From positions 171,103-235,102 of the forward strand of contig CAVZDP010000009.1 in the NCBI GenBank assembly GCA_963774075.1: DNA of 64,000 bases, in the 5' to 3' direction. How positions within the stretch are numbered: position 1 is the stretch's first letter; each line of letters starts with the position of its first letter. The DNA comes from an uncultured Solirubrobacterales bacterium. Its GTDB lineage: Bacteria > Actinomycetota > Thermoleophilia > Solirubrobacterales > JBBDJG01. The notes beneath the pieces are model-generated. The model did not search any database. It saw only the letters and a list, made by a program, of their open reading frames with translations, and was not told the origin of the DNA. This document shows, one piece after another, positions 5,028 to 52,370 of the stretch. A program made the position numbers and the translations under genes.

Positions 5028-5385
5028 TTACTTGACAGCACCTTGGCAAACGAGGGCCTTTTCTTCACGGCATCTTGATATCCGAGTGAGTAGTGTCGCC
5101 GCCAAGGCAGGGTAGCCAGCCAAGGCCGCGGACGGCCTGAGCAGTCGAAGAACGGATCAGGGTGGAAGCGCTCACTGTTTACAGGGCGCAGCAGCAACAG
5201 GGGATAGGGGTGGATGTTCCGGGCCCCGGGCGGACCATTAGCTACGTGGCCGCGAACGTTGCCGGGTGCGTGGCAACGATCCCGACTCCTACCAACTGCC
5301 AGCCGTGCTTCAACGGCCGAGCGGTTCGGCAAGTGAAACCGGACATCGTGATCGCAGGAGCGTCTCGGCCGTGCAAGGAGGAAGG

Positions 5386-8300: not shown

Positions 8301-11280
8301 GGACACGATCCCCGACGGCCCCCAGGACTTCACCTACACCGATGACATCGGCAACGGCTGCACGATCGGCCCGCTCGACGACGACGCCGACAACACCAAC
8401 CCCGCCAGCCAGACCTGCAACAACGTCACGCCCGGCCCCTACACGGTGACCGAGGACGACCCCACGCCCGGCTTCGACCTCACCGACCTCGACTGCACCG
8501 ACCCCGACAGCGGCACCACGACCTCGACCGCCAGCCGCCAGGCCTCGATCGACCTCGACCCGGGCGAGACCGTCAGCTGCACGTTCGAGAACACCGAGCG
8601 CGGCACGATCGTGATCACCAAGGACACGATCCCCGACGGCCCCCAGGACTTCACCTACACCGATGACATCGGCAACGGCTGCACGATCGGCCCGCTCGAC
8701 GACGACGCCGACAACACCAACCCCGCCAGCCAGACCTGCAACAACGTCACGCCCGGCCCCTACACGGTGACCGAGGACGACCCCACGCCCGGCTTCGACC
8801 TCACCGACCTCGACTGCACCGACCCCGACAGCGGCACCACGACCTCGACCGCCAGCCGCCAGGCCTCGATCGACCTCGACCCGGGCGAGACCGTCAGCTG
8901 CACGTTCGAGAACACCGAGCGCGGCACGATCGTGATCACCAAGGACACGATCCCCGACGGCCCCCAGGACTTCACCTACACCGATGACATCGGCAACGGC
9001 TGCACGATCGGCCCGCTCGACGACGACGCCGACAACACCAACCCCGCCAGCCAGACCTGCAACAACGTCACGCCCGGCCCCTACACGGTGACCGAGGACG
9101 ACCCCACGCCCGGCTTCGACCTCACCGACCTCGACTGCACCGACCCCGACAGCGGCACCACGACCTCGACCGCCAGCCGCCAGGCCTCGATCGACCTCGA
9201 CCCGGGCGAGACCGTCAGCTGCACGTTCGAGAACACCGAGCGCGGCACGATCGTGATCACCAAGGACACGATCCCCGACGGCCCCCAGGACTTCACCTAC
9301 ACCGATGACATCGGCAACGGCTGCACGATCGGCCCGCTCGACGACGACGCCGACAACACCAACCCCGCCAGCCAGACCTGCAACAACGTCACGCCCGGCC
9401 CCTACACGGTGACCGAGGACGACCCCACGCCCGGCTTCGACCTCACCGACCTCGACTGCACCGACCCCGACAGCGGCACCACGACCTCGACCGCCAGCCG
9501 CCAGGCCTCGATCGACCTCGACCCGGGCGAGACCGTCAGCTGCACGTTCGAGAACACCGAGCGCGGCACGATCGTGATCGACAAGGACGCCGTACCAGAT
9601 GACCCGCAGGACTTCTCGTTCACGGGCGATTCGCCGATCGGCTCCTTCACGCTCGACGACGACGCCGACGGCACCAACCCGTCCTCGCGAAGCTTCCAGA
9701 TTCCGCCGGCGACCTACGACGTCACGGAAGGTGCGCTGGCGGGTTGGCTGCCTCCGAACATCAACTGCGCCGACCCGGACAGCGGGACGACGACAGACGT
9801 CCCCAACCGCACGGCCTCGATCGACCTCGACCCGGGCGAGACCGTGAGCTGCACGTTCACGAACGTGAAGGACACCGACGAGGACGGGATTCCGAACGTG
9901 GTCGACTGCACGCCGACTCTCGCCGACGACCATGTCGTCGACCCGGGCAACGTCGTCCCGGGAAGCTTCACGGGTAGCCGTCACAACACGCTCCAGGCGG
10001 CGGTCAACGCGGCGGCCGACAACCAGCTGATCAGCATGTACGCCAACACCACCGAGAACGTGGTCATCGGCGCGACTACCGGCTCCGGCAACAAGGACCT
10101 CCGCATCGAGGGCTGCGGCCACAAGGTGACGGCAGCCGATCCCTCCAAGCCGGCAATTCAGGCCGAGTCCTCGGCGGGCGCCGACGACGGCAACACCGGC
10201 AAGGGTGAGCGAGACATCCACATCGGCGACCTCGACGTGCGTGGATCGAGCTCGTCCTCCGGTTACCTGATCCAGACGAGCAAGGCCTCGTCCGGCACGT
10301 CGACCCTGCTGAAGGCAGTGCGATCCGAGAGCAACTCGATCGGAATCAAAATCGCCGGCCACGGAAACCACGTCCGCGGCTCCAACGGCGTCAAGCTCAA
10401 CTCCGGCGACGGCATTCAGGTGATCGGAAACAGCAACCTGATCGAGGAGAACCGCGTCGACGAGAACGGTGGCGACGGCATCGACGTCACCGGTAACTCA
10501 AACACGATCAAGAAGAGCAAGCTCGAGACCAACAACGCCGGAGACGGGATCAAGGTCGCTGGAAACTCGAACTCGCTGCCCGAGAACGACGTGTTCGACA
10601 GTGGCAGTGACGGCATCGACGTCACCGGGAACCTCAACGCGCTCACGAAGAACGACGTCGGCGACGCAGGCAAGGGCAACGGCGGAGATGGCATCAAGAT
10701 CACGGGCGACGGGAACCTGCTCGGCACGGCCGTGGCCGAGAACAGCATCTTCGCGAACACGGGCAGCGGTCTCGTCGTCAACGGAAACATGAACGCGCTC
10801 GTTAAGAACGTCGCGGGTGACCACAACAAGGGCAACGGCGGCGACGGCTTCCGCGTCAGCGGCTACGGCAATACGCTCACCGAGAACAAGGCGTGGGCGA
10901 ATGGCGGCGACGGTGTCGAGGTCAGCGGTGGCACCTCCGCCAAGCCGAACCGGCTGCTGAAGAACGTCGCGGGCGACTCGAACAAGGGCAACGGCGGCAA
11001 CGGATTCCTGCTCTCCGGCATCGGCAACGGCAACTCGGTCCCGATCGAGCTAGAGCAGAACACGGCCAAGAAGAACACGCTCGACGGCATCCGGGTCAAC
11101 GGCACGGGCTGGCAGCTCAAGAACAACATCAGCGGCGGCTCCGCCAGCGAGGACAACGGCGACTGCGAGTTCAGAGTCATCGCCGGCAACTTCAACGCCA
11201 CAGGCAACAAGGCGAACAACACGACGATCGCGGGTGCCAGCGGGAGCGCCTTCCCGACCGGATGCAGGGGGACGCCGTAA
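5386..11280 (+). CDS. Giant secreted surface protein 1 (signal peptide, unique N-terminal region, 7+1 Ig/prealbumin-like 107-aa repeats, C-terminal parallel beta-helix PbH1-type repeats)
   Basis: The ORF is open from 5266. In-frame GTG at 5386 follows AAGGAGGAAG and yields a signal-like N-terminus (LGASALLVALILIATVPAAA). Repeats end in the ETVSCTFENTE motif typical of prealbumin/SpaA-like folds. The C-terminus is a run of NxxGDGIxVxGNxN units typical of right-handed beta-helix proteins. Confidence 0.85.
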   Translation: MRKAGTASGYRRLVSWLGASALLVALILIATVPAAATPSSCAAIGLETIQTDKADYAPEETVHMTGTGYAPACDVVVQVTRPNGSIVKGDGSFEPGSDTATTDGDGNLVYDYILNGIQGEYGVEVQGADGSVLATTSFSDSVSVVLEGGGDWSATGSTCATPNDAISDNNVRALCDFGETVVGRDFGLQAQVPSSATDISFVAIVRGRVSNADDNDIFDVSLSHDGGTNYTSPVVATDAVNNVIPAGADQNVEAPAAGTTAACAAGSNFGRTWTYSELSDANFRLRVAAHPKTVAGTDALLQQMDIDDIDLVVCYAGRFITAASVSGPQANNPGTRDVSLTVNHTLANGFSAATADDWGSTEYEIEGQGSICSTVPNPDETGSTTDTHSIPVEAPLAAGTYDVTMRAFRDGACSLGASDPWVITDGITVDSSLPTLHRSSESQTSATFSHAVSSGGDRLLLVAVMIDSIEDATSVTYGGVPLTHEFTQAAGGGTSDGQRVEIWRLTSPPVGTANVVVNFATAVAYKGVAAANYTGVDQSDPIGATGGSLSGSVTLTTTQNGSTIFGAVSAGGENSAPFTTTSPVTELWDAVTGGGSNQESTDAGLWGGQRAAPFAGSNTIGTTHTGLAGTDLAIAAVEIKALQTGTIVITKDTIPDGPQDFTYTDDIGNGCTIGPLDDDADNTNPASQTCNNVTPGPYTVTEDDPTPGFDLTDLDCTDPDSGTTTSTASRQASIDLDPGETVSCTFENTERGTIVITKDTIPDGPQDFTYTDDIGNGCTIGPLDDDADNTNPASQTCNNVTPGPYTVTEDDPTPGFDLTDLDCTDPDSGTTTSTASRQASIDLDPGETVSCTFENTERGTIVITKDTIPDGPQDFTYTDDIGNGCTIGPLDDDADNTNPASQTCNNVTPGPYTVTEDDPTPGFDLTDLDCTDPDSGTTTSTASRQASIDLDPGETVSCTFENTERGTIVITKDTIPDGPQDFTYTDDIGNGCTIGPLDDDADNTNPASQTCNNVTPGPYTVTEDDPTPGFDLTDLDCTDPDSGTTTSTASRQASIDLDPGETVSCTFENTERGTIVITKDTIPDGPQDFTYTDDIGNGCTIGPLDDDADNTNPASQTCNNVTPGPYTVTEDDPTPGFDLTDLDCTDPDSGTTTSTASRQASIDLDPGETVSCTFENTERGTIVITKDTIPDGPQDFTYTDDIGNGCTIGPLDDDADNTNPASQTCNNVTPGPYTVTEDDPTPGFDLTDLDCTDPDSGTTTSTASRQASIDLDPGETVSCTFENTERGTIVITKDTIPDGPQDFTYTDDIGNGCTIGPLDDDADNTNPASQTCNNVTPGPYTVTEDDPTPGFDLTDLDCTDPDSGTTTSTASRQASIDLDPGETVSCTFENTERGTIVIDKDAVPDDPQDFSFTGDSPIGSFTLDDDADGTNPSSRSFQIPPATYDVTEGALAGWLPPNINCADPDSGTTTDVPNRTASIDLDPGETVSCTFTNVKDTDEDGIPNVVDCTPTLADDHVVDPGNVVPGSFTGSRHNTLQAAVNAAADNQLISMYANTTENVVIGATTGSGNKDLRIEGCGHKVTAADPSKPAIQAESSAGADDGNTGKGERDIHIGDLDVRGSSSSSGYLIQTSKASSGTSTLLKAVRSESNSIGIKIAGHGNHVRGSNGVKLNSGDGIQVIGNSNLIEENRVDENGGDGIDVTGNSNTIKKSKLETNNAGDGIKVAGNSNSLPENDVFDSGSDGIDVTGNLNALTKNDVGDAGKGNGGDGIKITGDGNLLGTAVAENSIFANTGSGLVVNGNMNALVKNVAGDHNKGNGGDGFRVSGYGNTLTENKAWANGGDGVEVSGGTSAKPNRLLKNVAGDSNKGNGGNGFLLSGIGNGNSVPIELEQNTAKKNTLDGIRVNGTGWQLKNNISGGSASEDNGDCEFRVIAGNFNATGNKANNTTIAGASGSAFPTGCRGTP
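7318..9564 (+). repeat. 7 x 321-bp nucleotide-identical in-frame tandem repeat (107 aa per unit), followed by a diverged 8th unit (9565-~9870)
   Basis: Units start at 7318, 7639, 7960, 8281, 8602, 8923 and 9244. The sequence text is the same in each unit. All antisense pseudo-ORFs recur with identical 71-aa translations at a 321-nt period. Confidence 0.95.
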
Positions 11281-11296
11281 GCATGAGGGGGCAACA

Positions 11297-14200
11297 ATGA
11301 CGAAGCGACTAAAACTCTTTTCGAGTCTCGTCCTCGCGACCGGCCTCTTGGCCGTGCTCGCGCCCTCACAGGCCGCAGCACACCCCGATCCCGACTGCAC
11401 CGCCCTCGGCGGCGTGATCACGCTCGCCGACGAGTGCGAGGTTCAGTCGAGCCAGACGGCCAAGGCCGGCACCTACAACATCTTCCACACGCTGATCATC
11501 AAGGCCGGCGTCCAGATCGACGCCACCACGCCCGGCACGGGCGGCATCACGATCAACATCAGTGGCGCCGGCAACGACCTGGTGATGGAGTCGGGCAGCG
11601 CGATCGAGGCAAACGACCCCTCGAGCCCCCCTAACGACAGCGCCCGCCCGATCACGATCACGGTTCCCGACGACATGACGATGATGGCCGGCAGCACGCT
11701 GGCGGAGAACAACTCTCAGGGCGGCTCGGGCGCCGACATCAGCCTGACGATCGGCGACGACTTCACGATGCAGTCGGGCTCGGAGATCTCGAGCTCGCGC
11801 AATGCCGGCACCACGACCGGCTCCGGCGGCGACATCGCGATCGACGTCGGCGGCGACATGCTGATGGAGGCCAACACCATCATCCACGCCGATGGCCAGA
11901 ACCCGGCCGCAGGCGACGTCACGATCAACGTCGACGGCGACATGACGATGAAGGGCACCGCCGGCCCGCTCGCCGGGGCCATCATCTCCGCCACGGGCAG
12001 CTTCGGCGACACCGCCGGCGACATCACGATCCACGTCGGCAACTTCCCCAACATCCCGCCCACGGGCGTCTTCACTCAGGAGACCGGCGCGGTCGTGACC
12101 GCGAGCTCGGGTGGGCCGGCTGGCGAGATCATCATCACCGCCGGCCGGGAGATGTCGGTCGACGGCTCCGTGCTCTCGGAGTCCGGTCAATCGGGCACCG
12201 GAGCCATCCAGCCGCCCGGCGGCGGCCCGATCACGCTCCAGGCGGGCTGCGGGCTCACCGTCTCCGACACCGGCCTCGTCTCCTCCAGGGGACAGGATCC
12301 GGGCGCCGACCTCGTCCACCTCGAGGCCTGCGAGGTCTTGATCCAGGGCGTCGTTCGCTCCTTCGCACCTGGCGCGGGACACGTGATCCCGACCGGCGGC
12401 AACCGCTGCAACGACGACACCACCGCCCACCCCACCAACGGCGCCGCGGGCTTCACGGGCTGCGTTGAGATCTGGGCCAAGAACGTCACGATCGACAACA
12501 CCGGCACCCACAACGGCGAGGTCCACACCGACGGCATCCGCAACCCGATGCGGGGCTGGGTCGACGTCTTCGCCCAGAAGGACGTCTCGATCCTGGGCGA
12601 CCCGACCACGCCCTACCCGACCACCTTCGACGCCAACGCCTTCGTCTACACCCCGCCCTACGCGGTGCACGCCAACGCCTGCCCGGCAAGCGACGGCCAG
12701 GCGCCCTGCTCGAACTCCTTCGGCGGCCTGATCACGGTCAAGTCGCTCGATGGCAAGGTCGCAGCCTCCGGGCGCGCCCTGCAGGCGACCGCCACCGCGC
12801 TCGGCGCAGACGGCGGTGACATCGTCGTCGAGGCGGGCGGAGCGGCTCCGGCGGGCGAGGTCGACCTCGACAGCGCGAGCCTGCAGGCGACCGGGCCCTC
12901 GGGCTCCAACACCGCCGGCGGCTCGGTCAGCGTTCGCTCCTGGGAGGACGACGTGCTCGGCGTCCCGCCGGGCGAGATCAAGGTCGCCGGCGACGGTCTC
13001 ACCGATCCCGGCACGATCACCCTCACCGCCTGCATGGACGTCAACTACACAGGCTCCACCGATCGCACCCCGACCGTCAACGAGGGTGCACCCTTCTGCG
13101 GCACTGGGCCGACGATTCCGGCCAGCGTGCTCTCCAACTTTGCGCTCCGCGCAGCGCTCTGGGACGCCTGCGACCCCCAGGAGGGAGTGAAGAAGGGCCA
13201 GAAGTTCAACGACCTCGACGGTGACGGCGTCAAGGACGCTGGCGAGCCGGGCCTACCGAACTGGACCATCCACATCTTCGGCACCACCAACGACAACGTG
13301 GTCGTCCACGAGGACATCCTCACCGACGCCAACGGCAACTACGAGATCACCCTTCCCCCCGGCACCTACACCGCCTGCGAGGAGCTTCAGACGGGCTGGG
13401 TGCAGACCTTCCCGAACCCCGGAAGCGACGGCAACGCCTGCGAGGGCCACAACCACCTCGGCAGCCCCGGCGCTGCCGGCTACACGTTCACGATCGTCGG
13501 TGGAGATACCCACGAGGGGAACGACTTTGGGAACCGCGAGAAGCCGCTCGAGTGCCCCGAGGACCCGGGTCGGGCCTCCTCGATCACGAGGATGGTCGAC
13601 GAGGACGGCACCTCGCACGCGGTGTCGGTGCCGAACCACCTGACCGTGCAGGAGGCCTACAACGCCGCCCAGGCCAGCGGCAACCCGAACGAGGTCATCG
13701 GCATGTTCTCCGAGACGACCGAGAACGTCGTCCTCAACGGGCCGAAGCGGGTGACCATCACGCAGTGCACGACCGCCAAGGTCACCGCAGCCGACAATTC
13801 GAAGCCGGTCTGGGACATCGGGCTCGGCGCCGGGCGCCTGCTGATCGTTGGCCCCGACTCCGTCGGCGGGACGATCGGCTGGAACGTCGCCGGCAACGGC
13901 CACGAGCTCAAGGGGCTGCGGGCCGAGGGCGCGAGCCAGTACGGCATTCGGGTGCTCGGCAACAACAACTCCGTCAGCTACAACTCGGTCGACACGAGCC
14001 CTGTCGGGATTCGAGTCGAGGGCGATTACACCGACCTTCGCGGCGGCACGGTCGAGAGGAACACCGGCGATGGCGTCCAGCTCGGCTCGACGGCCAACAA
14101 CAACACGTTCCGGACGGCGAACGTCCAGAGCAACGGCGGGAACGGGATCCTCGTCGAGGGCCCGACCAACACGATTCGCGACAACGGCCGGATCGACCTC

Positions 14201-14629
14201 AACACCCTGAACGGGATCCTCGTCGCGAGCGCCGGCAACACGATCCTCAACAACTCCGCCGCGAGCGACAACAACAAGGGCAACGGTCAGGACGGATTCA
14301 AGGTAACCGGGCCCAACAACTCCATAGAGAACAACAGGGCAAGCGACAACGGCGGCGACGGATTCGACGTCGGCGGCGGCTCGAGCAGCGCACTTGCGAA
14401 CAAGCTGAAGAACAACCAGAGCAACCTGACGGGGGTAGGCGGCACGAAGGAGAACACGGGGGCTGAGTACCGCCTCCTCAACTGGGTGAAGAACAACGCC
14501 GGCGGCAACAAGGCCGACGGGATCGTCGTGCCCAAGACCACGAGCCCGACGAAGTGCAACTCGGCCGCCACTCAATTCCCGGCCACCAACGCGACATCCA
14601 ACTTCACGACGGCGCAGGCCTGCGAGTAG
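11297..14629 (+). CDS. Giant secreted surface protein 2 (signal peptide, beta-helix-like N-terminal domain, SdrD-B/prealbumin-like domain, PbH1 C-terminal cassette A)
   Basis: ATG at 11297 (MTKRLKLFSSLVLATGLLAVLAPSQAAA, signal-like) follows a GAGGGGG RBS. Contains GGxITINIxG-type repeats and KFNDLDGDGVKDAGEPGLPNWTIHIF (SdrD B-like). C-terminal NxxGDGxxV repeats. Tail is KCNSAATQFPATN...ACE. Confidence 0.85.
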   Translation: MTKRLKLFSSLVLATGLLAVLAPSQAAAHPDPDCTALGGVITLADECEVQSSQTAKAGTYNIFHTLIIKAGVQIDATTPGTGGITINISGAGNDLVMESGSAIEANDPSSPPNDSARPITITVPDDMTMMAGSTLAENNSQGGSGADISLTIGDDFTMQSGSEISSSRNAGTTTGSGGDIAIDVGGDMLMEANTIIHADGQNPAAGDVTINVDGDMTMKGTAGPLAGAIISATGSFGDTAGDITIHVGNFPNIPPTGVFTQETGAVVTASSGGPAGEIIITAGREMSVDGSVLSESGQSGTGAIQPPGGGPITLQAGCGLTVSDTGLVSSRGQDPGADLVHLEACEVLIQGVVRSFAPGAGHVIPTGGNRCNDDTTAHPTNGAAGFTGCVEIWAKNVTIDNTGTHNGEVHTDGIRNPMRGWVDVFAQKDVSILGDPTTPYPTTFDANAFVYTPPYAVHANACPASDGQAPCSNSFGGLITVKSLDGKVAASGRALQATATALGADGGDIVVEAGGAAPAGEVDLDSASLQATGPSGSNTAGGSVSVRSWEDDVLGVPPGEIKVAGDGLTDPGTITLTACMDVNYTGSTDRTPTVNEGAPFCGTGPTIPASVLSNFALRAALWDACDPQEGVKKGQKFNDLDGDGVKDAGEPGLPNWTIHIFGTTNDNVVVHEDILTDANGNYEITLPPGTYTACEELQTGWVQTFPNPGSDGNACEGHNHLGSPGAAGYTFTIVGGDTHEGNDFGNREKPLECPEDPGRASSITRMVDEDGTSHAVSVPNHLTVQEAYNAAQASGNPNEVIGMFSETTENVVLNGPKRVTITQCTTAKVTAADNSKPVWDIGLGAGRLLIVGPDSVGGTIGWNVAGNGHELKGLRAEGASQYGIRVLGNNNSVSYNSVDTSPVGIRVEGDYTDLRGGTVERNTGDGVQLGSTANNNTFRTANVQSNGGNGILVEGPTNTIRDNGRIDLNTLNGILVASAGNTILNNSAASDNNKGNGQDGFKVTGPNNSIENNRASDNGGDGFDVGGGSSSALANKLKNNQSNLTGVGGTKENTGAEYRLLNWVKNNAGGNKADGIVVPKTTSPTKCNSAATQFPATNATSNFTTAQACE
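11327..13534 (+). repeat. Copy A of a 2208-bp perfect segmental duplication (offset 3360 bp)
   Basis: Matches 14687-16894. Identical translations in all frames listed in the ORF track. The first mismatches are at 11318/11323/11326 on the 5' side and at 13535 on the 3' side. Confidence 0.9.
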
Positions 14630-14656: not shown

Positions 14657-17600
14657 ATGACGAAGCGACTAAAACTCCTTTCAAGCCTCGTCCTCGCGAC
14701 CGGCCTCTTGGCCGTGCTCGCGCCCTCACAGGCCGCAGCACACCCCGATCCCGACTGCACCGCCCTCGGCGGCGTGATCACGCTCGCCGACGAGTGCGAG
14801 GTTCAGTCGAGCCAGACGGCCAAGGCCGGCACCTACAACATCTTCCACACGCTGATCATCAAGGCCGGCGTCCAGATCGACGCCACCACGCCCGGCACGG
14901 GCGGCATCACGATCAACATCAGTGGCGCCGGCAACGACCTGGTGATGGAGTCGGGCAGCGCGATCGAGGCAAACGACCCCTCGAGCCCCCCTAACGACAG
15001 CGCCCGCCCGATCACGATCACGGTTCCCGACGACATGACGATGATGGCCGGCAGCACGCTGGCGGAGAACAACTCTCAGGGCGGCTCGGGCGCCGACATC
15101 AGCCTGACGATCGGCGACGACTTCACGATGCAGTCGGGCTCGGAGATCTCGAGCTCGCGCAATGCCGGCACCACGACCGGCTCCGGCGGCGACATCGCGA
15201 TCGACGTCGGCGGCGACATGCTGATGGAGGCCAACACCATCATCCACGCCGATGGCCAGAACCCGGCCGCAGGCGACGTCACGATCAACGTCGACGGCGA
15301 CATGACGATGAAGGGCACCGCCGGCCCGCTCGCCGGGGCCATCATCTCCGCCACGGGCAGCTTCGGCGACACCGCCGGCGACATCACGATCCACGTCGGC
15401 AACTTCCCCAACATCCCGCCCACGGGCGTCTTCACTCAGGAGACCGGCGCGGTCGTGACCGCGAGCTCGGGTGGGCCGGCTGGCGAGATCATCATCACCG
15501 CCGGCCGGGAGATGTCGGTCGACGGCTCCGTGCTCTCGGAGTCCGGTCAATCGGGCACCGGAGCCATCCAGCCGCCCGGCGGCGGCCCGATCACGCTCCA
15601 GGCGGGCTGCGGGCTCACCGTCTCCGACACCGGCCTCGTCTCCTCCAGGGGACAGGATCCGGGCGCCGACCTCGTCCACCTCGAGGCCTGCGAGGTCTTG
15701 ATCCAGGGCGTCGTTCGCTCCTTCGCACCTGGCGCGGGACACGTGATCCCGACCGGCGGCAACCGCTGCAACGACGACACCACCGCCCACCCCACCAACG
15801 GCGCCGCGGGCTTCACGGGCTGCGTTGAGATCTGGGCCAAGAACGTCACGATCGACAACACCGGCACCCACAACGGCGAGGTCCACACCGACGGCATCCG
15901 CAACCCGATGCGGGGCTGGGTCGACGTCTTCGCCCAGAAGGACGTCTCGATCCTGGGCGACCCGACCACGCCCTACCCGACCACCTTCGACGCCAACGCC
16001 TTCGTCTACACCCCGCCCTACGCGGTGCACGCCAACGCCTGCCCGGCAAGCGACGGCCAGGCGCCCTGCTCGAACTCCTTCGGCGGCCTGATCACGGTCA
16101 AGTCGCTCGATGGCAAGGTCGCAGCCTCCGGGCGCGCCCTGCAGGCGACCGCCACCGCGCTCGGCGCAGACGGCGGTGACATCGTCGTCGAGGCGGGCGG
16201 AGCGGCTCCGGCGGGCGAGGTCGACCTCGACAGCGCGAGCCTGCAGGCGACCGGGCCCTCGGGCTCCAACACCGCCGGCGGCTCGGTCAGCGTTCGCTCC
16301 TGGGAGGACGACGTGCTCGGCGTCCCGCCGGGCGAGATCAAGGTCGCCGGCGACGGTCTCACCGATCCCGGCACGATCACCCTCACCGCCTGCATGGACG
16401 TCAACTACACAGGCTCCACCGATCGCACCCCGACCGTCAACGAGGGTGCACCCTTCTGCGGCACTGGGCCGACGATTCCGGCCAGCGTGCTCTCCAACTT
16501 TGCGCTCCGCGCAGCGCTCTGGGACGCCTGCGACCCCCAGGAGGGAGTGAAGAAGGGCCAGAAGTTCAACGACCTCGACGGTGACGGCGTCAAGGACGCT
16601 GGCGAGCCGGGCCTACCGAACTGGACCATCCACATCTTCGGCACCACCAACGACAACGTGGTCGTCCACGAGGACATCCTCACCGACGCCAACGGCAACT
16701 ACGAGATCACCCTTCCCCCCGGCACCTACACCGCCTGCGAGGAGCTTCAGACGGGCTGGGTGCAGACCTTCCCGAACCCCGGAAGCGACGGCAACGCCTG
16801 CGAGGGCCACAACCACCTCGGCAGCCCCGGCGCTGCCGGCTACACGTTCACGATCGTCGGTGGAGATACCCACGAGGGGAACGACTTTGGGAACAGGAAG
16901 CTCGAGTGCGAGAAGGGCCCTGTCAAGGACGTGCTCAACCCGACGACTGGGCGCTTCCCCGGCAACGCAGGACCCGATGTGATCGTACGGATCGACCTCG
17001 GTCAGTCCGTCCAGGATGCTGTCGACAACGTCAGCGACGTCAACGGCGACCAGAAGCTCATCATCTTGGTCCTCAAGGACGGGACGGGGCAGCTCGGCGG
17101 GCACACGAGCCAGGAAGTCGTCATCGACGACGCCTACAGCCTGCCGTTCGGCCTGATCGGCTGCAGCGTGACGCTTCACGATCCGACCCCCAATGACGCC
17201 AACCCGACGATCCGCATCGCATCCTCTGCTGGAAGCCCACAGAACATCTTCCTGATGGACCTCCATGCTGCGGACAGCAAGGCCGCGGGCATCGCGGTCG
17301 AGGGCAATGGCCGCTACCTGCGTAACGAGAACGTCCTCAACAACGCGGTCGGCTTCAAGATCACCGGCAACGCCAACACCGTCCACAACGGCGCGGCGAC
17401 GGGCAACACCGGTGCCGGTGCCAACGTCCAGGGCGACAGCAACGTGCTCACGGACACCGACTCCTACTCGAACGGCGTCGGCTTCCAGGTCACGGGCAAC
17501 AACAACCAGCTCCTCAAGCTCGACGCAGGAGACAAGGGCAAGGGGAACCTCGGCGACGGCGTCAACGTCAACGGCGCCAACAACCTGTTGTCCGAGATCG

Positions 17601-18052
17601 GGGCCTTCGCCAACGGCGGCGACGGCATCGACGTCACCGGCAACACCAACCGCCTGCTGAAGAACGTCGCCGGCGACTCGGGCAAGGGCAACGGGGCCGA
17701 CGGCATTCACCTCGCGGGCTCCGGGGCGACGATTCAGGAGAACAAGGCCAGCAGCAACAAGACGACCAGCACGACCGGTGACGGGTTCGACATCAGCGGC
17801 GGCGTGAGCGCCGCTCCGAACAAGCTGAAGAACAACTCCAGCAACACCGGATCCTCGGGAAGCTCGACCCACGAGAACGGCGGCGCAGAGTACCGCCTGC
17901 TCAACTACGTGCGAAACGACGGGGGTGGCAACAAGGCCGACGGCGTAGTCGTCCCCAAGACGACGAGCCCGGTGAAGTGCAATGCCGGCGCCACTCAGTT
18001 CCCGGCCATGAATGTCACGCTCAACCTCATGTCGGCGACCGCGTGCGAGTAG
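14657..18052 (+). CDS. Giant secreted surface protein 3 (N-terminal ~745 aa identical to protein 2, different PbH1 C-terminal cassette B)
   Basis: 1131-aa ORF starting MTKRLKLLSSLVLATG. Diverges from gene 2 right after ...HEGNDFGN. C-terminal tail KCNAGATQFPAMN...ACE is homologous to the gene 2 tail. Confidence 0.85.
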   Translation: MTKRLKLLSSLVLATGLLAVLAPSQAAAHPDPDCTALGGVITLADECEVQSSQTAKAGTYNIFHTLIIKAGVQIDATTPGTGGITINISGAGNDLVMESGSAIEANDPSSPPNDSARPITITVPDDMTMMAGSTLAENNSQGGSGADISLTIGDDFTMQSGSEISSSRNAGTTTGSGGDIAIDVGGDMLMEANTIIHADGQNPAAGDVTINVDGDMTMKGTAGPLAGAIISATGSFGDTAGDITIHVGNFPNIPPTGVFTQETGAVVTASSGGPAGEIIITAGREMSVDGSVLSESGQSGTGAIQPPGGGPITLQAGCGLTVSDTGLVSSRGQDPGADLVHLEACEVLIQGVVRSFAPGAGHVIPTGGNRCNDDTTAHPTNGAAGFTGCVEIWAKNVTIDNTGTHNGEVHTDGIRNPMRGWVDVFAQKDVSILGDPTTPYPTTFDANAFVYTPPYAVHANACPASDGQAPCSNSFGGLITVKSLDGKVAASGRALQATATALGADGGDIVVEAGGAAPAGEVDLDSASLQATGPSGSNTAGGSVSVRSWEDDVLGVPPGEIKVAGDGLTDPGTITLTACMDVNYTGSTDRTPTVNEGAPFCGTGPTIPASVLSNFALRAALWDACDPQEGVKKGQKFNDLDGDGVKDAGEPGLPNWTIHIFGTTNDNVVVHEDILTDANGNYEITLPPGTYTACEELQTGWVQTFPNPGSDGNACEGHNHLGSPGAAGYTFTIVGGDTHEGNDFGNRKLECEKGPVKDVLNPTTGRFPGNAGPDVIVRIDLGQSVQDAVDNVSDVNGDQKLIILVLKDGTGQLGGHTSQEVVIDDAYSLPFGLIGCSVTLHDPTPNDANPTIRIASSAGSPQNIFLMDLHAADSKAAGIAVEGNGRYLRNENVLNNAVGFKITGNANTVHNGAATGNTGAGANVQGDSNVLTDTDSYSNGVGFQVTGNNNQLLKLDAGDKGKGNLGDGVNVNGANNLLSEIGAFANGGDGIDVTGNTNRLLKNVAGDSGKGNGADGIHLAGSGATIQENKASSNKTTSTTGDGFDISGGVSAAPNKLKNNSSNTGSSGSSTHENGGAEYRLLNYVRNDGGGNKADGVVVPKTTSPVKCNAGATQFPAMNVTLNLMSATACE
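14687..16894 (+). repeat. Copy B of the 2208-bp perfect segmental duplication
   Basis: See 11327-13534. Confidence 0.9.
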
Positions 18053-18150
18053 TGGAGCCCTGCACTTGACAGCCAAACCCCGACAGCGAGAAGGTAGCGA
18101 TGGCAAGGTTGCACGCGAGCCGGGTCGGGCTCGCCACGTCAGGAGGACAC

Positions 18151-18180
18151 ATGTATCTCACATCCGAGCGCCTCAGGTGA
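18151..18180 (+). other. 9-codon upstream ORF (MYLTSERLR) with a strong SD; its stop overlaps the GTG start of giant gene 4
   Basis: AGGAGG at 18141-18146, ATG at 18151 in the +1 frame relative to the giant ORF. TGA at 18178-18180 overlaps GTG at 18177-18179 (GTGA). Alternatively this is another 1-nt indel and 18151 is the true start. Confidence 0.3.
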
Positions 18181-20168
18181 ATCGTTCCAAGGGTGGGAGT
18201 CGCCGCGGCCGCGGCGTCGTGACTCTCCTGGCAACGCTCGTCCTGTCGGCTGTTTTCGCAGGGTCGGCCTCGGCCGACCAGGCCGGCTGCGACCTGGGCA
18301 CCTACAACGTGATCTTTGACGAGTGCCAGATCTCCGGTCCCACGACGGCCACCGGAGTGAAGAACTTCCACCACTCGGTGCACATGCTGCCCGGCTCGAG
18401 CATCAATGCGAGCGGAGGCGGAATCACCCTCAACATCAATGGCGCCTCCGGGCTCGACTTCACGATGGACACGACCAGCTCCGTCATCGAGGCCAACGAC
18501 GATGGCCTGCCCTCGGGTGCGAGCGCGAGCCCAATCAACATCAACGCGACCGGCGACATGGAGATGCAGGCCGGCGCCAGGATCCTCGCCGAGAACGCGA
18601 ACAACGGCGGAAGCGGCGGCAACATCACGATCGACGTCGACGGCGACCTGACGATGGCCGGAGCGGTCGGGCTGGTGCCGGGCGCGATCATCTCGACTCG
18701 CAAGTCCGCTGGCGCCGGCGACACAGGCTTGGGGGGCAACATTACGATCATGGTCGGCGACTCCACGGCGGCGACCGGCACCTTCTTCATGGGCGGCGGC
18801 TCCACCACCTACGGCGCGGAGACCGGCGCGAAGCTGATCGCCACCGGCACAGGACCGGCCGGTGACATAACGGTCAACGCCGGCCGCACCTATACGACCG
18901 AGCCCGGCTCGGTCGTCGAGGCGGGGGATGGCAACGGGACCACGGTCCAGCAGGGCGGCAAGATCTTTCTCGCCTCCGGCTGCGGCCTGACGACCAAGGG
19001 CCGCGTGACCAGCAAGGGCACGGACCCGGGCGCCGACCTCGTTCACATCGAGGCCTGCGACGTCCTCATCGCCGGCCTCGTCGAGTCGACCGGCAGGGCG
19101 CACGCGACCGGGATCAGGAACAGCTGCGACAACGTGAACGACGGCCTCGCCGGGGAGGTCCTCCGGCCCGGCAAGCCGGCTGAGTCGACGGCCTGCATCG
19201 AGGTCTGGGCCAACAACGTCACCATCGACTCGACCAACGGCAACGCCGGCGAGCTGAACGCGGACATCGGCAACGGGGGGAGCGGGGGCAGATCATGGAT
19301 AGACGTCTTTGCCTTCACCGACCTGACTGTCAAGGACGGCAGCGGCAACAACCGCACCAGCAGCAACGGCGGCGGTTCCTACCTGAACACCTTCGCGGTG
19401 CACGCGAAGTCGATCGGTGGCTCTGACAACACTCCGAACACGATCACCGCCAAGGCCAAGACGGGCGTGCTGACGGTTACCGGCGACGCCTTCCAAGCGG
19501 GCTCGGACGGCAATGGCTCCAACGGCGGCTCGATCGTGCTTCAGAGCTCCGGCAACGCCACCCTGGATACCTCGCTCGAGGCGTCCTCCGGCGGCGGTGC
19601 TGCGGGCGACGGCGGCTCGATCGCGGTCAGGTCGTTCAACGGCAACATCAGCTGGCAGAACGGCGAGGGCGACGTCACTGGGAGCCCAAACGGGACGATC
19701 TCGCTGACCTCCTGCGGCACGGTCAACACCGCCGGGTCGAACTTCCACAGCGTGTCTGTCACGACGGCGAGTTCCTGCGGCGGCATGCCCTCGATCCCCG
19801 GGGTGAGCCCCGACTACACGAATGGTTTCTTCGACAGCGCCACGCGCTGGGACAATTGCAACGAAGAGGGAACGATCATCGTCGAGAAGCAGACCGTCCC
19901 GGACGGTGCGACGGGCAACTTCACGTTCACGGGCGACGCGGCCGGCACGATCTCCGACGGCCAGCAGATCGTCGTATCCGGGCTGACAGCCGGTACCTAC
20001 ACCTCCACGGAGGCAGACCCCTCGCCGGGTTTCGACCTCACCGACATTCAGTGCACGGACTCTGACAACGCGGGCGTTGCGAGCTCGGGCGACACTCAGA
20101 CTCGAACGGCGACGATCAACCTCGACCCCGGCGAGACCGTCAGCTGCACGTTCGAGAACACCGAGCGC

Positions 20169-23100
20169 GGCAAGGTCGTGATCACCAAGGACACGATCCC
20201 CAACGGCCCCCAGGACTTCACCTACACCGACACCATCCCCAACGGCTGCCAGATCGGCCCCCTCGACGACGACTCCGACAACACCAACCCCAACAACACG
20301 ACCTGCCTCAACGTCACCCCCGGCACCTACAGCGTGACCGAGGACGACCCGACGCCGGGCTTCGACCTCACCGACCTCACCTGCACCGACTCTGACGCCG
20401 GCGGCACCGACTCCACGGGCTCGACCGCCACCCGCACGGCGACGATCAACCTCGACCCCGGCGAGACCGTCAGCTGCACGTTCGAGAACACCGAGCGCGG
20501 CAAGGTCGTGATCACCAAGGACACGATCCCCAACGGCCCCCAGGACTTCACCTACACCGACACCATCCCCAACGGCTGCCAGATCGGCCCCCTCGACGAC
20601 GACTCCGACAACACCAACCCCAACAACACGACCTGCCTCAACGTCACCCCCGGCACCTACAGCGTGACCGAGGACGACCCGACGCCGGGCTTCGACCTCA
20701 CCGACCTCACCTGCACCGACTCTGACGCCGGCGGCACCGACTCCACGGGCTCGACCGCCACCCGCACGGCGACGATCAACCTCGACCCCGGCGAGACCGT
20801 CAGCTGCACGTTCGAGAACACCGAGCGCGGCAAGGTCGTGATCACCAAGGACACGATCCCCAACGGCCCCCAGGACTTCACCTACACCGACACCATCCCC
20901 AACGGCTGCCAGATCGGCCCCCTCGACGACGACTCCGACAACACCAACCCCAACAACACGACCTGCCTCAACGTCACCCCCGGCACCTACAGCGTGACCG
21001 AGGACGACCCGACGCCGGGCTTCGACCTCACCGACCTCACCTGCACCGACTCTGACGCCGGCGGCACCGACTCCACGGGCTCGACCGCCACCCGCACGGC
21101 GACGATCAACCTCGACCCCGGCGAGACCGTCAGCTGCACGTTCGAGAACACCGAGCGCGGCAAGGTCGTGATCACCAAGGACACGATCCCCAACGGCCCC
21201 CAGGACTTCACCTACACCGACACCATCCCCAACGGCTGCCAGATCGGCCCCCTCGACGACGACTCCGACAACACCAACCCCAACAACACGACCTGCCTCA
21301 ACGTCACCCCCGGCACCTACAGCGTGACCGAGGACGACCCGACGCCGGGCTTCGACCTCACCGACCTCACCTGCACCGACTCTGACGCCGGCGGCACCGA
21401 CTCCACGGGCTCGACCGCCACCCGCACGGCGACGATCAACCTCGACCCCGGCGAGACCGTCAGCTGCACGTTCGAGAACACCGAGCGCGGCAAGGTCGTG
21501 ATCACCAAGGACACGATCCCCAACGGCCCCCAGGACTTCACCTACACCGACACCATCCCCAACGGCTGCCAGATCGGCCCCCTCGACGACGACTCCGACA
21601 ACACCAACCCCAACAACACGACCTGCCTCAACGTCACCCCCGGCACCTACAGCGTGACCGAGGACGACCCGACGCCGGGCTTCGACCTCACCGACCTCAC
21701 CTGCACCGACTCTGACGCCGGCGGCACCGACTCCACGGGCTCGACCGCCACCCGCACGGCGACGATCAACCTCGACCCCGGCGAGACCGTCAGCTGCACG
21801 TTCGAGAACACCGAGCGCGGCAAGGTCGTGATCACCAAGGACACGATCCCCAACGGCCCCCAGGACTTCACCTACACCGACACCATCCCCAACGGCTGCC
21901 AGATCGGCCCCCTCGACGACGACTCCGACAACACCAACCCCAACAACACGACCTGCCTCAACGTCACCCCCGGCACCTACAGCGTGACCGAGGACGACCC
22001 GACGCCGGGCTTCGACCTCACCGACCTCACCTGCACCGACTCTGACGCCGGCGGCACCGACTCCACGGGCTCGACCGCCACCCGCACGGCGACGATCAAC
22101 CTCGACCCCGGCGAGACCGTCAGCTGCACGTTCGAGAACACCGAGCGCGGCAAGGTCGTGATCACCAAGGACACGATCCCCAACGGCCCCCAGGACTTCA
22201 CCTACACCGACACCATCCCCAACGGCTGCCAGATCGGCCCCCTCGACGACGACTCCGACAACACCAACCCCAACAACACGACCTGCCTCAACGTCACCCC
22301 CGGCACCTACAGCGTGACCGAGGACGACCCGACGCCGGGCTTCGACCTCACCGACCTCACCTGCACCGACTCTGACGCCGGCGGCACCGACTCCACGGGC
22401 TCGACCGCCACCCGCACGGCGACGATCAACCTCGACCCCGGCGAGACCGTCAGCTGCACGTTCGAGAACACCGAGCGCGGCAAGGTCGTGATCACCAAGG
22501 ACACGATCCCCAACGGCCCCCAGGACTTCACCTACACCGACACCATCCCCAACGGCTGCCAGATCGGCCCCCTCGACGACGACTCCGACAACACCAACCC
22601 CAACAACACGACCTGCCTCAACGTCACCCCCGGCACCTACAGCGTGACCGAGGACGACCCGACGCCGGGCTTCGACCTCACCGACCTCACCTGCACCGAC
22701 TCTGACGCCGGCGGCACCGACTCCACGGGCTCGACCGCCACCCGCACGGCGACGATCAACCTCGACCCCGGCGAGACCGTCAGCTGCACGTTCGAGAACA
22801 CCGAGCGCGGCAAGGTCGTGATCACCAAGGACACGATCCCCAACGGCCCCCAGGACTTCACCTACACCGACACCATCCCCAACGGCTGCCAGATCGGCCC
22901 CCTCGACGACGACTCCGACAACACCAACCCCAACAACACGACCTGCCTCAACGTCACCCCCGGCACCTACAGCGTGACCGAGGACGACCCGACGCCGGGC
23001 TTCGACCTCACCGACCTCACCTGCACCGACTCTGACGCCGGCGGCACCGACTCCACGGGCTCGACCGCCACCCGCACGGCGACGATCAACCTCGACCCCG

Positions 23101-24455
23101 GCGAGACCGTCAGCTGCACGTTCGAGAACACCGAGCGCGGCAAGGTCGTGATCACCAAGGACACGATCCCCAACGGCCCCCAGGACTTCACCTACACCGA
23201 CACCATCCCCAACGGCTGCCAGATCGGCCCCCTCGACGACGACTCCGACAACACCAACCCCAACAACACGACCTGCCTCAACGTCACCCCCGGCACCTAC
23301 AGCGTGACCGAGGACGACCCGACGCCGGGCTTCGACCTCACCGACCTCACCTGCACCGACTCTGACGCCGGCGGCACCGACTCCACGGGCTCGACCGCCA
23401 CCCGCACGGCGACGATCAACCTCGACCCCGGCGAGACCGTCAGCTGCACGTTCGAGAACACCGAGCGCGGCAAGGTCGTGATCACCAAGGACACGATCCC
23501 CAACGGCCCCCAGGACTTCACCTACACCGACACCATCCCCAACGGCTGCCAGATCGGCCCCCTCGACGACGACTCCGACAACACCAACCCCAACAACACG
23601 ACCTGCCTCAACGTCACCCCCGGCACCTACAGCGTGACCGAGGACGACCCGACGCCGGGCTTCGACCTCACCGACCTCACCTGCACCGACTCTGACGCCG
23701 GCGGCACCGACTCCACGGGCTCGACCGCCACCCGCACGGCGACGATCAACCTCGACCCCGGCGAGACCGTCAGCTGCACGTTCGAGAACACCGAGCGCGG
23801 CAAGGTCGTGATCACCAAGGACACGATCCCCAACGGCCCCCAGGACTTCACCTACACCGACACCATCCCCAACGGCTGCCAGATCGGCCCCCTCGACGAC
23901 GACTCCGACAACACCAACCCCAACAACACGACCTGCCTCAACGTCACCCCCGGCACCTACAGCGTGACCGAGGACGACCCGACGCCGGGCTTCGACCTCA
24001 CCGACCTCACCTGCACCGACTCTGACGCCGGCGGCACCGACTCCACGGGCTCGACCGCCACCCGCACGGCGACGATCAACCTCGACCCCGGCGAGACCGT
24101 CAGCTGCACGTTCGAGAACACCGAGCGCGGCAAGGTCGTGATCACCAAGGACACGATCCCCAACGGCCCCCAGGACTTCACCTACACCGACACCATCCCC
24201 AACGGCTGCCAGATCGGCCCCCTCGACGACGACTCCGACAACACCAACCCCAACAACACGACCTGCCTCAACGTCACCCCCGGCACCTACAGCGTGACCG
24301 AGGACGACCCGACGCCGGGCTTCGACCTCACCGACCTCACCTGCACCGACTCTGACGCCGGCGGCACCGACTCCACGGGCTCGACCGCCACCCGCACGGC
24401 GACGATCAACCTCGACCCCGGCGAGACCGTCAGCTGCACGTTCGAGAACACCGAG
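20169..24455 (+). repeat. 13 x 330-bp nucleotide-identical in-frame tandem repeat (110 aa per unit; the last unit lacks its final codon)
   Basis: Units start at 20169 + n*330. Identical antisense 74-aa pseudo-ORFs recur at 20327...23957, plus a variant at 24287. A diverged unit 0 lies at ~19870-20168. Confidence 0.95.
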
Positions 24456-26161
24456 GACGCCACCGTCACGATCACCAAGGACGCGATCCCGGACGGTCCG
24501 CCAGGACTTCAGCTTCAGCGACCACCGGCCTCAACGGCGCCTGATCGGCCCTTCACGCTCGAGCGACGACGGCAACGAGACAAACGAGCCGGCGACTCCC
24601 GGCACCGGCGGCGACTGGCCGAAGACCAAGAAGTTCACGTTCTCCGGCTCCGACTTCGGAGCGAAGACGATCACCGGGTCGGTCCCGAGCGGCTGGACGA
24701 ACTCCGCCTACAGCTTGCTCCGAGGGCACCAAGAGTGGAACGACGACCGCGAACTTCACGGTCGACCCAGGCGACACGATCAGCGTGCAACTACGAGAAC
24801 ACCAAGGACGCCACCGTCACGATCACCAAGGACGCGATCCCGGATTCCGGCCAGGACTTCCGCTTCTCGACCACCGGCTCAGGCCTCGCGCCCTTCACGC
24901 TCGAGGACGACGGCAACGAGACAAACGAGCCGGCGACTCCCGGCACCGGCGGCGACTGGCCGAAGACCAAGAAGTTCACGTTCACTGGCTCCGACTTCGG
25001 GCGAAGACGATCACCGAGTCGTCCCGCGCGGCTGGACGAACTCCGCCTACAGTTGCTCCGAGGGCACCAAGAGTGGAACGACGACCGCGAACTTCACGGT
25101 CGACCCAGGCGACACGATCACGTGCAACTACGAGAACACCAAGGACGCCACCGTCACGATCACCAAGGACGCGATCCCGGACTCAGGCCAGGACTTCAGC
25201 TTCACGACCTCCGGCTCGGGCCTCTCGAGCTTCACGCTCGAGGACGACGGCAACGAGACAAACGAGCCGGCGACTCCCGGCACCGGCGGCGACTGGCCGA
25301 AGACCAAGAAGTTCACGTTCTCCGGCTCCGACTTCGGAGCGAAGACGATCACCGAGTCGGTCCCGAGCGGCTGGACGAACTCCGCCTACAGCTGCTCCGA
25401 GGGCACCAAGAGTGGAACGACGACCGCGAACTTCACGGTCGACCCAGGCGACACGATCACGTGCAACTACGAGAACAAGAAGAACGCGACCATCACGATC
25501 ACCAAGGACGCGATCCCGGATAGCGCGCAGAACTTCCCCTTCGGCTCTACTGGCCTCGCCCCATTCACGCTCGAGGACGACGGCAACGAGACAAACGAGC
25601 CGGCGACTCCCGGCACCGGCGGCGACTGGCCGAAGACCAAGAAGTTCACGGTCACTGGCTCCAACTACCCCTTCGGGCAGAAGACGATCACCGAGGTCGT
25701 CCCCGCAGGCTGGACGAACTCCGCCTACAGTTGCTCCGAGGGCACCAAGAGTGGAACGACGACCGCGAACTTCACGGTCGACCCAGGCGACACGATCACG
25801 TGCAACTACGAGAACACCAAGGACGCCACCGTCACGATCACCAAGGACGCGATCCCGGATTCCGGCCAGGACTTCAGCTTCTCGACCACCGGCTCAGGCC
25901 TTCGGGCCCTTCACGCTCGAGGACGACGGCAACGAGACAAACGAGCCGGCGACTCCCGGCACCGGCGGCGACTGGCCGAAGACCAAGAAGTTCACGTTCT
26001 CCGGCTCCGACTTCGGAGCGAAGACGATCACCGAGTCGGTCCCGAGCGGCTGGACGAACTCCGCCTACAGCTGCTCCGAGGGCACCAAGAGTGGAACGAC
26101 GACCGCGAACTTCACGGTCGACCCAGGCGACACGATCACGTGCAACTACGAGAACAAGAAG
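24456..26161 (+). repeat. Second repeat family R2, 5 units of ~339 bp (113 aa: DATVTITKDAIPDSGQDF...DDGNETNEPATPGTGGDWPKTKKFTF...CSEGTKSGTTTANFTVDPGDTITCNYENTK), imperfect and carrying indels
   Basis: Unit starts are 24456, 24807, 25144, 25483 and 25822. Unit lengths are 351, 337, 339, 339 and 340 bp. Confidence 0.85.
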
Positions 26162-27150
26162 AACGCGACCGTGACGGTCTACAAGTACAAGGACCTCAAC
26201 GGCAGCGGCAGCAAGGACCCGAGCGAGCCCTTCCTCAGCGGCTGGACCATCAAGATCTACCAGGGATCGTCGACCACGCCGCTGGCGACCCAGACCACGA
26301 ACGGCTCGGGGCAGGCGACCTTCTCGGTGAAGCCCGACCAGGCCTATCGCATCTGTGAGACGCTCCAGTCGGGATGGTTCAACACCGACCCCGGCGATGT
26401 GCCGCAGGGCACCGATCCGTGCAAGATGACAACCACCCTGGGAGCGGACCAGGCAGCCATCCTCTACTTCGGCAATCGCAAGGCGCTGACCACGGGTGCG
26501 AGAACGAAGGGCTTCTGGCGCAACAACAACGGGCAGGGCGTCATCACGGCGTCCTGTAGCCCCAGCGGCAAGCCATCGCTGTACTCGTTCCTAACGCAGT
26601 ACAACCCGTTCAAAGACCTGACATCCAGCAGCTGCAGTGCGATTGCCGGCTACGTCACGAACATCGTCGACGCGGCCGACTCATCGGGTACCTCGATGAA
26701 CCCGATGCTGAAGGCCCAGATGCTCTCTACCGCGCTTGACGTCTACTTCAGCGACCCCGCCCTGGGCTGGTCGTCCAGCGTGAACTCCTTCATCCCGAAC
26801 ACGACGATAGGTGGCATCACCATCGACCTTCAACACGTCTGCGCCATGTTCGACAGCAGCGCCGACCCTGCGGTCTGCACGGGCTCGTTCCGCGACGCGG
26901 GCGAGTGTGCGTTCGGCGGTGCCGACAGCATGACGGTGTCGCAGATGCTGGCCTATGCAGCGAGTAAAGCGGCGGTGGCGACATCGGCCAACCCGCTCGC
27001 CTCGCCCTGGTACGAGCAGGTCAAGACGACCCAGGAGTGCGCCAAGGACGCATTCGATGCCATCAACAACGAGGTTGCGTTCGGCCCGTAACGCAGCGCT
27101 TTGACTCCACGCACCCGATCGCGCCGGTTTCTGGGTAGGGTTCCTACGCG

Positions 27151-49538: not shown

Positions 49539-50294
49539 ATGACAGCCAGCCCCCCATTAGCCTCCGTTCGTGAAGGTCCGGCTAGTGTGCGACTACGGCG
49601 CTTCGTGCGCGAAACGGTCGGCTGGGCGGTTGGCATACCGATGGCCACCTTTCGCTACCTCACGCGAGAGGTCGACCTCCACCGAGTCGACGAGAAGCTC
49701 GACGAACCGATCGCCGACTTGAATCCGGACCCGCACGTCGCGGCGGATGAGAGCACCCAGCCTCCGTCGGAAGGGGTGGGGCCGGAGTTTTACCGGCGGT
49801 ACTCGCTCAAGATACGAAGGCCTCGCATCTCGGCGGAGCAGTTAATAGATGTTTTGTCGGCTGATCCGAACGTCGCGGCGCCGGTCGAGCTGGCTCGCTT
49901 CGTCAAGCGCGATGGGGATGCTGATGAGATGTCGGTCGGAGACGAGTACGTGGTGCGGATGCCGGGACCTTGGAACGGGCCTGTGCGTGTCACTTCCCGC
50001 ACTCCTCGTTCGTTTGGGCTGGTCACGCTCAAAGGTCACATGGAGGCTGGGGAGATCGAATTCACGGCCGAGCCTCGAAGCGACGGCGCGATCGATTTTA
50101 GAATCGAGTCGTGGGCGCGGAGCAACGGCTGGCTTTTCCACCTTCTCTACCACCGCCTACGTCTGTCGAAAGAAGTGCAGATGCACATGTGGGCGGAGTT
50201 CTGCCAGCGGGCAGCGCTCGTCGCGGGCGGAAAGCCGGAGAACGGCATCGAAGTCCGTACGGCCCGTTACGAGGACGACGATGAGGGCGACTGA
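49539..50294 (+). CDS. DUF1990 family protein
   Basis: YVVRMPGPWNGPVRVTSRTPRSFGLVTLKGHMEAGEIEF. Confidence 0.75.
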   Translation: MTASPPLASVREGPASVRLRRFVRETVGWAVGIPMATFRYLTREVDLHRVDEKLDEPIADLNPDPHVAADESTQPPSEGVGPEFYRRYSLKIRRPRISAEQLIDVLSADPNVAAPVELARFVKRDGDADEMSVGDEYVVRMPGPWNGPVRVTSRTPRSFGLVTLKGHMEAGEIEFTAEPRSDGAIDFRIESWARSNGWLFHLLYHRLRLSKEVQMHMWAEFCQRAALVAGGKPENGIEVRTARYEDDDEGD

Positions 50295-50932: not shown

Positions 50933-51120
50933 CGGCGAAAGCAAGCTCCCCCGCACGAAGTCGCCCTGACACTTCTGGCGGATTAGGTGGCTCACGTAAG
51001 TGGCCAGTCCTAGCGCACCCCGGCTGTCGCTTGGCGCGGAGGCTGTCGCACGAAGTCCGCGCCAGGCATTAAAACGCCGCCCTGAGTTAGGCGGCGGTGA
51101 GAATCGAACGCTGGGTCTCT

Positions 51121-52284: not shown

Positions 52285-52370
52285 TGCCTGGATCGTGCAA
52301 AACGACCCGGACGCTCATTGAAAGCTCGAATGGCCCTTTCCCAGGCCTCCACGTTCTCCCGCGACACGTG

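Follow-up and report, generated by a model that had tools for sequence, protein, structure and literature searches.

Single-base indels confined to the diverged tandem repeats of a giant prealbumin-repeat protein gene: a probable consensus artefact rather than gene inactivation

A cluster of four giant ORFs lies in a 64,000-nucleotide stretch of a contig (hereafter the window) from an uncultured Solirubrobacterales bacterium, and the last of them, gene 4, raises a simple question: is this gene broken in the organism or only in its assembled record? As assembled, gene 4 ends at a frame-0 stop codon (25521-25523) inside the fourth of five 339-bp tandem repeat units (R2), and from 24496 on its text is mostly out of frame and Arg-rich. 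A first-pass annotation had described this premature stop and the scrambled text before it, both of which translation bears out, and had traced them to single-base indels in the R2 units. The evidence presented below suggests that these indels are probably a consensus or polishing artefact, originating from reads mis-registered among diverged repeat units, and not the result of biological inactivation. The features on which the argument draws are collected in Table 1.

Table 1. Features of the window referred to in the text, in window coordinates. TRF, Tandem Repeats Finder.
Feature	Position	Strand	Description
Giant ORFs of the cluster	5266-11280, 11234-14629, 14657-18052, 18012-25523	+	Four very large ORFs
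Repeat array of gene 1	7315-9561		7 units of 321 bp, 100% identical
Segment common to genes 2 and 3	11327-13534 = 14687-16894		2208 bp, 100% identical, sharp boundaries
Giant gene 4 as assembled	18012-25523	+	2503-codon ORF
330-bp array (TRF)	20106-24551		99% matches, 0% indels; adjoined 3' by the 339-bp array
R1 array	20166-24455	+	13 units of 330 nt (110 aa, SpaA_4)
339-bp array (TRF)	24443-26176		5.1 copies, 90% matches, 4% indels
R2 unit 1	24456-24806	+	351 nt; six private 1-nt insertions, at 24495-24502, 24518, linker 24536-24547, 24564, 24714 and 24783 (MAFFT)
Blend at 24564	24564		GAGCGAC = GAGGAC (R2) + GACGAC (R1, gene-1 units)
Blend at 24714	24714		CAGCTTG = CAGCTG (units 3, 5) + CAGTTG (units 2, 4)
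Blend at 24783	24783		TCAGCGT = TCACGT (R2) + TCAGCT (R1 family)
R2 unit 2	24807-25143	+	337 nt; two private 1-nt deletions, following 25000 and 25020
Blend at 25000	25000		GGGCG = intersection of GGAGCG (units 1, 3, 5) and GGGCAG (unit 4)
Blend at 25020	25020		GAGTCGTC = intersection of GAGTCGGTC (units 3, 5) and GAGGTCGTC (unit 4)
R2 units 3 and 4	25144-25821 (unit 4 from 25483)	+	339 nt each; intact; read in frame 1
R2 unit 5	25822-26161	+	340 nt; one extra base in variable linker, ~25901-25905
Unique C-terminal part	26162-27091	+	930 bp (310 codons), open in frame 2; stop 27089-27091
SdrD_B-like domain	about 26180-26392	+	Weak Pfam profile match
C-terminal domain	26486-27088	+	~200 aa, without Pfam match; GNRKALTTGARTKGFWRNN... 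to ...AKDAFDAINNEVAFGP
Tandem DUF1990-domain ORFs	49539-50294 and 50294-50932		Second start overlaps first stop
IS1182-family transposase	50597-52621	-	Split across two frames; DUF772 N-terminal domain in 674-aa ORF 50597-52621, DDE domain in ORF 51121-51810
Tyrosine-recombinase-like ORF	54019-55140		

Private indels were defined as the gap columns of a MAFFT alignment of the five R2 units, mapped back to window coordinates. This alignment recovers the six insertions in unit 1, the two deletions in unit 2, and the single insertion in unit 5 that had been proposed earlier, with sites agreeing to within a few nucleotides, and, together with a three-frame translation, it upholds the view that units 3 and 4 are undamaged. 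The net length change of unit 1 is a multiple of three, so that frame 0 is regained at unit 2, and the extra base in unit 5 shifts the coding frame to frame 2. The total may nevertheless be ten rather than nine, because the linker of unit 1 can also be read with two deletions replacing one insertion. This alternative of five insertions and two deletions, which gives ...GLNGALIGPFTLEDD, is no worse a fit than six insertions; its IGP motif and its ATCGGCCC string are shared with the R1 and gene-1 units.

Nine edits, namely the removal of seven bases and the restoration of two, convert gene 4 into one ORF of 3024 codons (18012-27091) with no internal stop, and the first-pass annotation was thus right that the corrected gene reads through to 27091. 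The true start is likely to be near the signal peptide ...RRGRGVVTLLATLVLSAVFAGSASA; counted from this signal-peptide-like segment the corrected ORF has ~2968 codons, which accords with the ~2970 aa originally estimated. The conserved protein sequence of the unit hops between frames at the indel sites in a three-frame translation, and the in-frame text of the unit-1 region includes DDGNETNEPATPGTGGDWPK. In a GC3 frame plot, from which the GC3 phase alone was used, GC1/GC2-order strand calling being unreliable, the high-GC3 phase switches from 2 to 0 to 2 to 0 to 1 exactly at the places of the indels. In the corrected frame, GC3 stays at ~0.9 throughout, including downstream of the assembled stop. 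In all likelihood, the true gene 4 is a single unbroken ORF of about 2970-3024 codons.

The domain content of the corrected protein points in the same direction. The repeat units match the SpaA_4 prealbumin-like fold (Pfam PF24514) above the gathering threshold, as does gene 1 (324.6 bits over eight stretches), and a SpaA_4 match is also found in the N-terminal part of gene 4. The frame-0 translation of the R2 DNA as assembled has zero Pfam matches, and units 3 and 4 as assembled score 65.8 bits against SpaA_4; after correction, R2 yields five SpaA_4 stretches with 142.6 bits against a cut-off of 27.3 (E=1e-41). Downstream of these, the C-terminal domain is kept at 41-55% identity in 16 loci that a contig scan identified in soil metagenome-assembled genomes of Chloroflexota, Actinomycetota, Acidobacteriota, Dormibacterota, and others, including one from Burkholderiales, where it stands at the C-termini of SpaA_4-repeat proteins. 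One such homologue, P0002 (1044 aa), combines SpaA_4 repeats, SdrD_B-like domains, and the same C-terminal domain in a single ORF, and aligns to the final residues (...AKDAFDAINNQVAFGF versus ...AKDAFDAINNEVAFGP in gene 4). Homologues with three to nine intact R2-type units exist (P0001, P0002, and P0012), at identities of 40-56%, the best protein match to the corrected R2 region plus C-terminus being 56%. The single-ORF architecture of P0002 and the intact R2-type units of P0001 and P0012 indicate that the corrected read-through restores a real, conserved architecture.

This architecture recalls the giant surface proteins built of tandem prealbumin-like (SpaA/Cna-B/SdrD-B) domains, which are annotated as "MSCRAMM family" or "SdrD B-like domain-containing". 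The likeness lies in the SpaA_4 fold of all repeat units, the weak SdrD_B-like domain, and the N-terminal signal-peptide-like segment of gene 4. The difference lies at the other end, where gene 4 has a ~200-aa domain without a Pfam match in place of an LPXTG signal, and in the homologues, which are 40-56% identical. Assignment to the sortase-anchored adhesins of the MSCRAMM type was rejected on this ground: the corrected C-terminus, ...QECAKDAFDAINNEVAFGP followed by the stop, lacks the LPXTG sorting signal that such adhesins carry ahead of a hydrophobic segment and a positively charged tail.

The positions of the indels are not random. All nine fall within 1.7 kb of the 21.8-kb giant-ORF cluster, for which the chance expectation is (1706/21826)^9, or about 1e-10. 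The remaining ~20 kb of the cluster have zero indels, and the giant ORFs other than gene 4 are unbroken. The 13 units of R1, which adjoins R2, are all 100% identical at the DNA level and carry no indels. The R2 units, in comparison, are mutually 88-97% identical, with unit 4 being the most divergent (30-43 substitutions versus the others). Single-copy genes that were checked, namely those for the acyl-CoA ligase, HtrA, DUF4331, and UvdE, align with their profiles along most or all of their length and are free of frameshifts. The errors are thus found in repeated but not in unique sequence, as is to be expected of a consensus artefact.

In total, the giant-gene cluster holds three perfectly identical repeat sets (13 x 330 bp, 7 x 321 bp, and 2 x 2208 bp). 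They point to expansion in the very recent past or to strong concerted evolution; alternatively, assembly or polishing homogenized the copies, in which case their numbers may be unreliable too. The repeat arrays also display a marked compositional skew (GC skew about -0.31 and AT skew about +0.40 at 20001-24000). This arises because the repeat codons are rich in Thr, Asp, Pro, and Asn (ACC, GAC, CCC, and AAC) and is no replication signal.

The nature of the indels bears on their origin. In decaying bacterial genes, substitutions dominate, deletions are favored over insertions, and single-base indels concentrate in homopolymers. A pseudogene under neutral decay, in which substitutions would accompany the indels, with a deletion bias and homopolymer or simple-sequence contexts, was rejected as a candidate, since this combination was not found in R2. 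The private changes comprise a single substitution outside the variable zones, in unit 1, against nine indels, and unit 2 has no private substitution at all against its two private deletions. Insertions account for seven of the nine indels, and a homopolymer of three or more bases is present at none of the nine sites, which sets them apart from natural slippage and from the usual basecalling errors of long-read or 454 sequencing. The last point bears equally on programmed recoding (ribosomal frameshifting or transcriptional slippage) and on phase variation, through which the full-length protein might be made or switched. Nothing beyond the intact corrected frame speaks for such a process, which would need nine or ten shifts in both directions. 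This candidate was rejected, all nine contexts being devoid of a slippery X XXY YYZ heptamer, a homopolymer, or a simple-sequence tract, and we consider it extremely improbable.

What does distinguish the sites is their relationship to the differences among the repeat copies. For seven of the nine indels, a site at which the other four units vary is no more than one column away (binomial P=0.003). Moreover, many of the indel-bearing sequences are blends of alleles. We scored a sequence as a two-allele blend if it was one edit away from two different alleles in other units, such that an insertion represents the union of the two alleles and a deletion their intersection. Of the seven sites that could be tested, four are blends when the flanks are 5 nt (24564, 24714, 25000, and 25020) and six when they are 3 nt (24783 and 24495 being added); the corresponding rate for simulated random indels with 5-nt flanks is 1-2% for insertions and 2.5-4.7% for deletions. 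In its strict form, the two-allele test failed at three or four of the nine sites: 24518, both linker sites, and, with the wider flanks, 24495. A further test, whether all the extra bases of unit 1 derive from an R1 unit, was set aside as non-discriminating: 15 of 18 matched, against a background already at 72-80% in a gap-favoring alignment of the longest-common-subsequence type.

Blends of this kind can be generated by a consensus of mixed reads. In a toy consensus (the MAFFT majority of 30 reads with 8% error, not a real assembler), mixing unit-3-type and unit-4-type reads 50:50 altered the consensus length in 30 of 150 runs, and pure reads did so in 2 of 150. The 50:50 mix yielded the exact two deletions of unit 2 in 2 and 9 instances, and pure reads or 30% mixtures never produced them. 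Both the blend test and the toy consensus show that the aberrant sequence can be accounted for as a mixture of different repeat copies, as an artefact of consensus would predict.

From these patterns in the assembled sequence, we infer that the cause of the indels lies in the handling of the reads. While the consensus was being built, by pile-up or partial-order alignment, or during polishing, some reads might have been shifted by one or more repeat units, which the 88-97% identity of the R2 units would permit. Where two units differ, the alternative alleles in the mixed pile-up would be aligned as staggered gaps, and the consensus would keep either both alleles, creating a spurious insertion, or neither, creating a spurious deletion. 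In perfectly identical arrays, such mis-registration would be harmless; the R1 array, the gene-1 array, and the 2208-bp duplication would be clean because mis-registration cannot alter the consensus of identical copies. Likewise, unit 1 would be the worst affected because the adjoining 4.3-kb perfect R1 array gives no left anchor, and the problem would be least in unit 5, which adjoins unique sequence. The most divergent unit, unit 4, and its neighbor, unit 3, are the two without indels. A mixture of strains might add to the effect, should the source be a metagenome-assembled genome. A column-wise consensus of a mixed pile-up would be able to emit blends of this type, but a de Bruijn-graph assembler would not, and it would be excluded as the source because no read would contain the blended sequence.

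Modern long reads that span the region should normally resolve a 6-kb array, which weighs against an artefact. Searches for an independent copy of the locus, with which the assembled sequence might be compared, returned relatives of at most 55% identity, all in soil metagenome-assembled genomes, in a contig scan with the C-terminal domain. Exact look-ups of the gene 3, acyl-CoA ligase, and HtrA proteins gave no match in the collection searched, and a degenerate pattern for PATPGTGGDWPKTKKF had 0 hits in scanned metagenomes. None of the collections searched contained an identical or near-identical sequence.

The closest precedents come from polished long-read bacterial assemblies, in which the residual errors after polishing are mostly in repeats and pile-up polishers, Pilon and Racon among them, introduce errors (Wick and Holt 2022, Polypolish, PMC8812927). 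These cases resemble the present one in that ORF-breaking small indels are confined to repeats, with unique sequence clean, and in tracing, here on the proposed reading, to reads that cannot be assigned with certainty to one repeat copy. They differ in being mostly uncorrected homopolymer-length errors (PMC8812927), whereas here we see non-homopolymer unions and intersections of alleles and identical arrays that are unaffected. This difference also bears on a simpler account, in which long-read basecalling made ordinary random errors that went uncorrected because short-read polishers are unable to place reads in repeats, with no mixing of alleles. The concentration of post-polishing errors in repeats (PMC8812927) fits this account, as the errors here are repeat-confined. 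However, such errors are mostly of homopolymer length (PMC8812927), which none of the nine is; they would be expected at least as often in the perfect arrays of 4.3 kb and 2.2 kb and in the duplication of 2208 bp, where there are no differences; and they would not preferentially reproduce the alleles of other units. Random basecalling error is therefore a very unlikely cause. The first-pass annotation had named assembly or basecalling error at a repeat boundary as the first of its two explanations. Its assembly half gains from the blend signature and from the confinement to a diverged array, and takes the specific form of blends of paralogous alleles; its generic basecalling half loses ground with the complete want of homopolymers of three or more bases at the sites.

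The more serious rival takes the frameshifts as real, so that gene 4 would be a truncated allele or a pseudogene of very recent origin. One possible source is exchange between the diverged R2 units and the neighboring R1 units, through template switching or error-prone gene conversion, the out-of-register joins of which would resemble blends of alleles. The indels do stand in the sequence as given, and the locus bears the mark of intense homogenization of repeats: the 100% identical arrays and the 2208-bp identical duplication imply that recombination between units is active. Further, the split of the IS1182-like transposase across frames implies that real pseudogenes may exist in this genome. 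Against this stand nine or ten non-homopolymer 1-nt indels with essentially no private substitutions, the preponderance of insertions, which runs counter to the deletion-biased decay of bacterial genes, a codon bias that is undecayed, and a downstream frame of 310 codons that is free of stops. Recombination would also have to be remarkably intricate, with unit 2 alternating between unit-3-like and unit-4-like sequence at least four times in the space of 30 nt and unit 1 drawing on donor tracts of a single nucleotide. Taken together, these observations make real frameshifts unlikely. The same holds for the real mutational hotspot or inactivation that the first-pass annotation offered as its other explanation: private substitutions are almost lacking, insertions predominate, and the sites show the blend pattern, all of which speak against it.

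A natural comparison for this rival is with adhesin pseudogenes that carry genuine frameshifts and with phase-variable repeat genes, since there, too, frameshifts disrupt a large surface-protein gene that contains repeats. However, the known frameshifted adhesins have one or a few shifts, typically in homopolymer or simple-sequence tracts, whereas gene 4 has nine non-homopolymer blends in 1.7 kb without substitutions. Were the frameshifts real, the cell's product would be a 2503-aa protein that ends in a scrambled Arg-rich tail and has lost the C-terminal domain. In the special case where the blends themselves are real, recombination or template switching between diverged units and R1 would constitute a localized indel-generating process that truncates a giant surface protein, and the same process could reverse the change by re-conversion from the intact units. 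That would be an unusual repeat-driven means of switching off such a protein, which the evidence does not favor and which we regard as quite unlikely.

The transposase just mentioned belongs to a different part of the window. It is an IS1182-like element that seems to lack the segment between its DUF772 and DDE parts, and it may be either a genuine decayed IS copy or another repeat-associated error; we gave it no weight as evidence on either side. The surrounding region (33000-64000), which also holds a tyrosine-recombinase-like ORF, has a much weaker GC3 codon-bias signal than the first 30 kb and may be horizontally acquired or mobile. The window also contains a tandem pair of DUF1990-domain ORFs (Table 1).

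If, as we favor, the indels are a consensus artefact, the record would carry a 2503-aa protein with an Arg-rich nonsense tail and a spurious 768-aa ORF where the likely truth is one protein of ~2970 aa, and the main value of the observation would be as an assembly-quality flag. The signature of blended paralogous alleles is a diagnostic that needs no reads, and it could flag similar consensus errors in the diverged tandem repeats of other assemblies. For the organism, the product of gene 4 would most likely be a secreted giant protein, in which an N-terminal region is followed by 14 R1-type and 5 R2-type SpaA_4 domains, an SdrD_B-like domain, and the conserved C-terminal domain.
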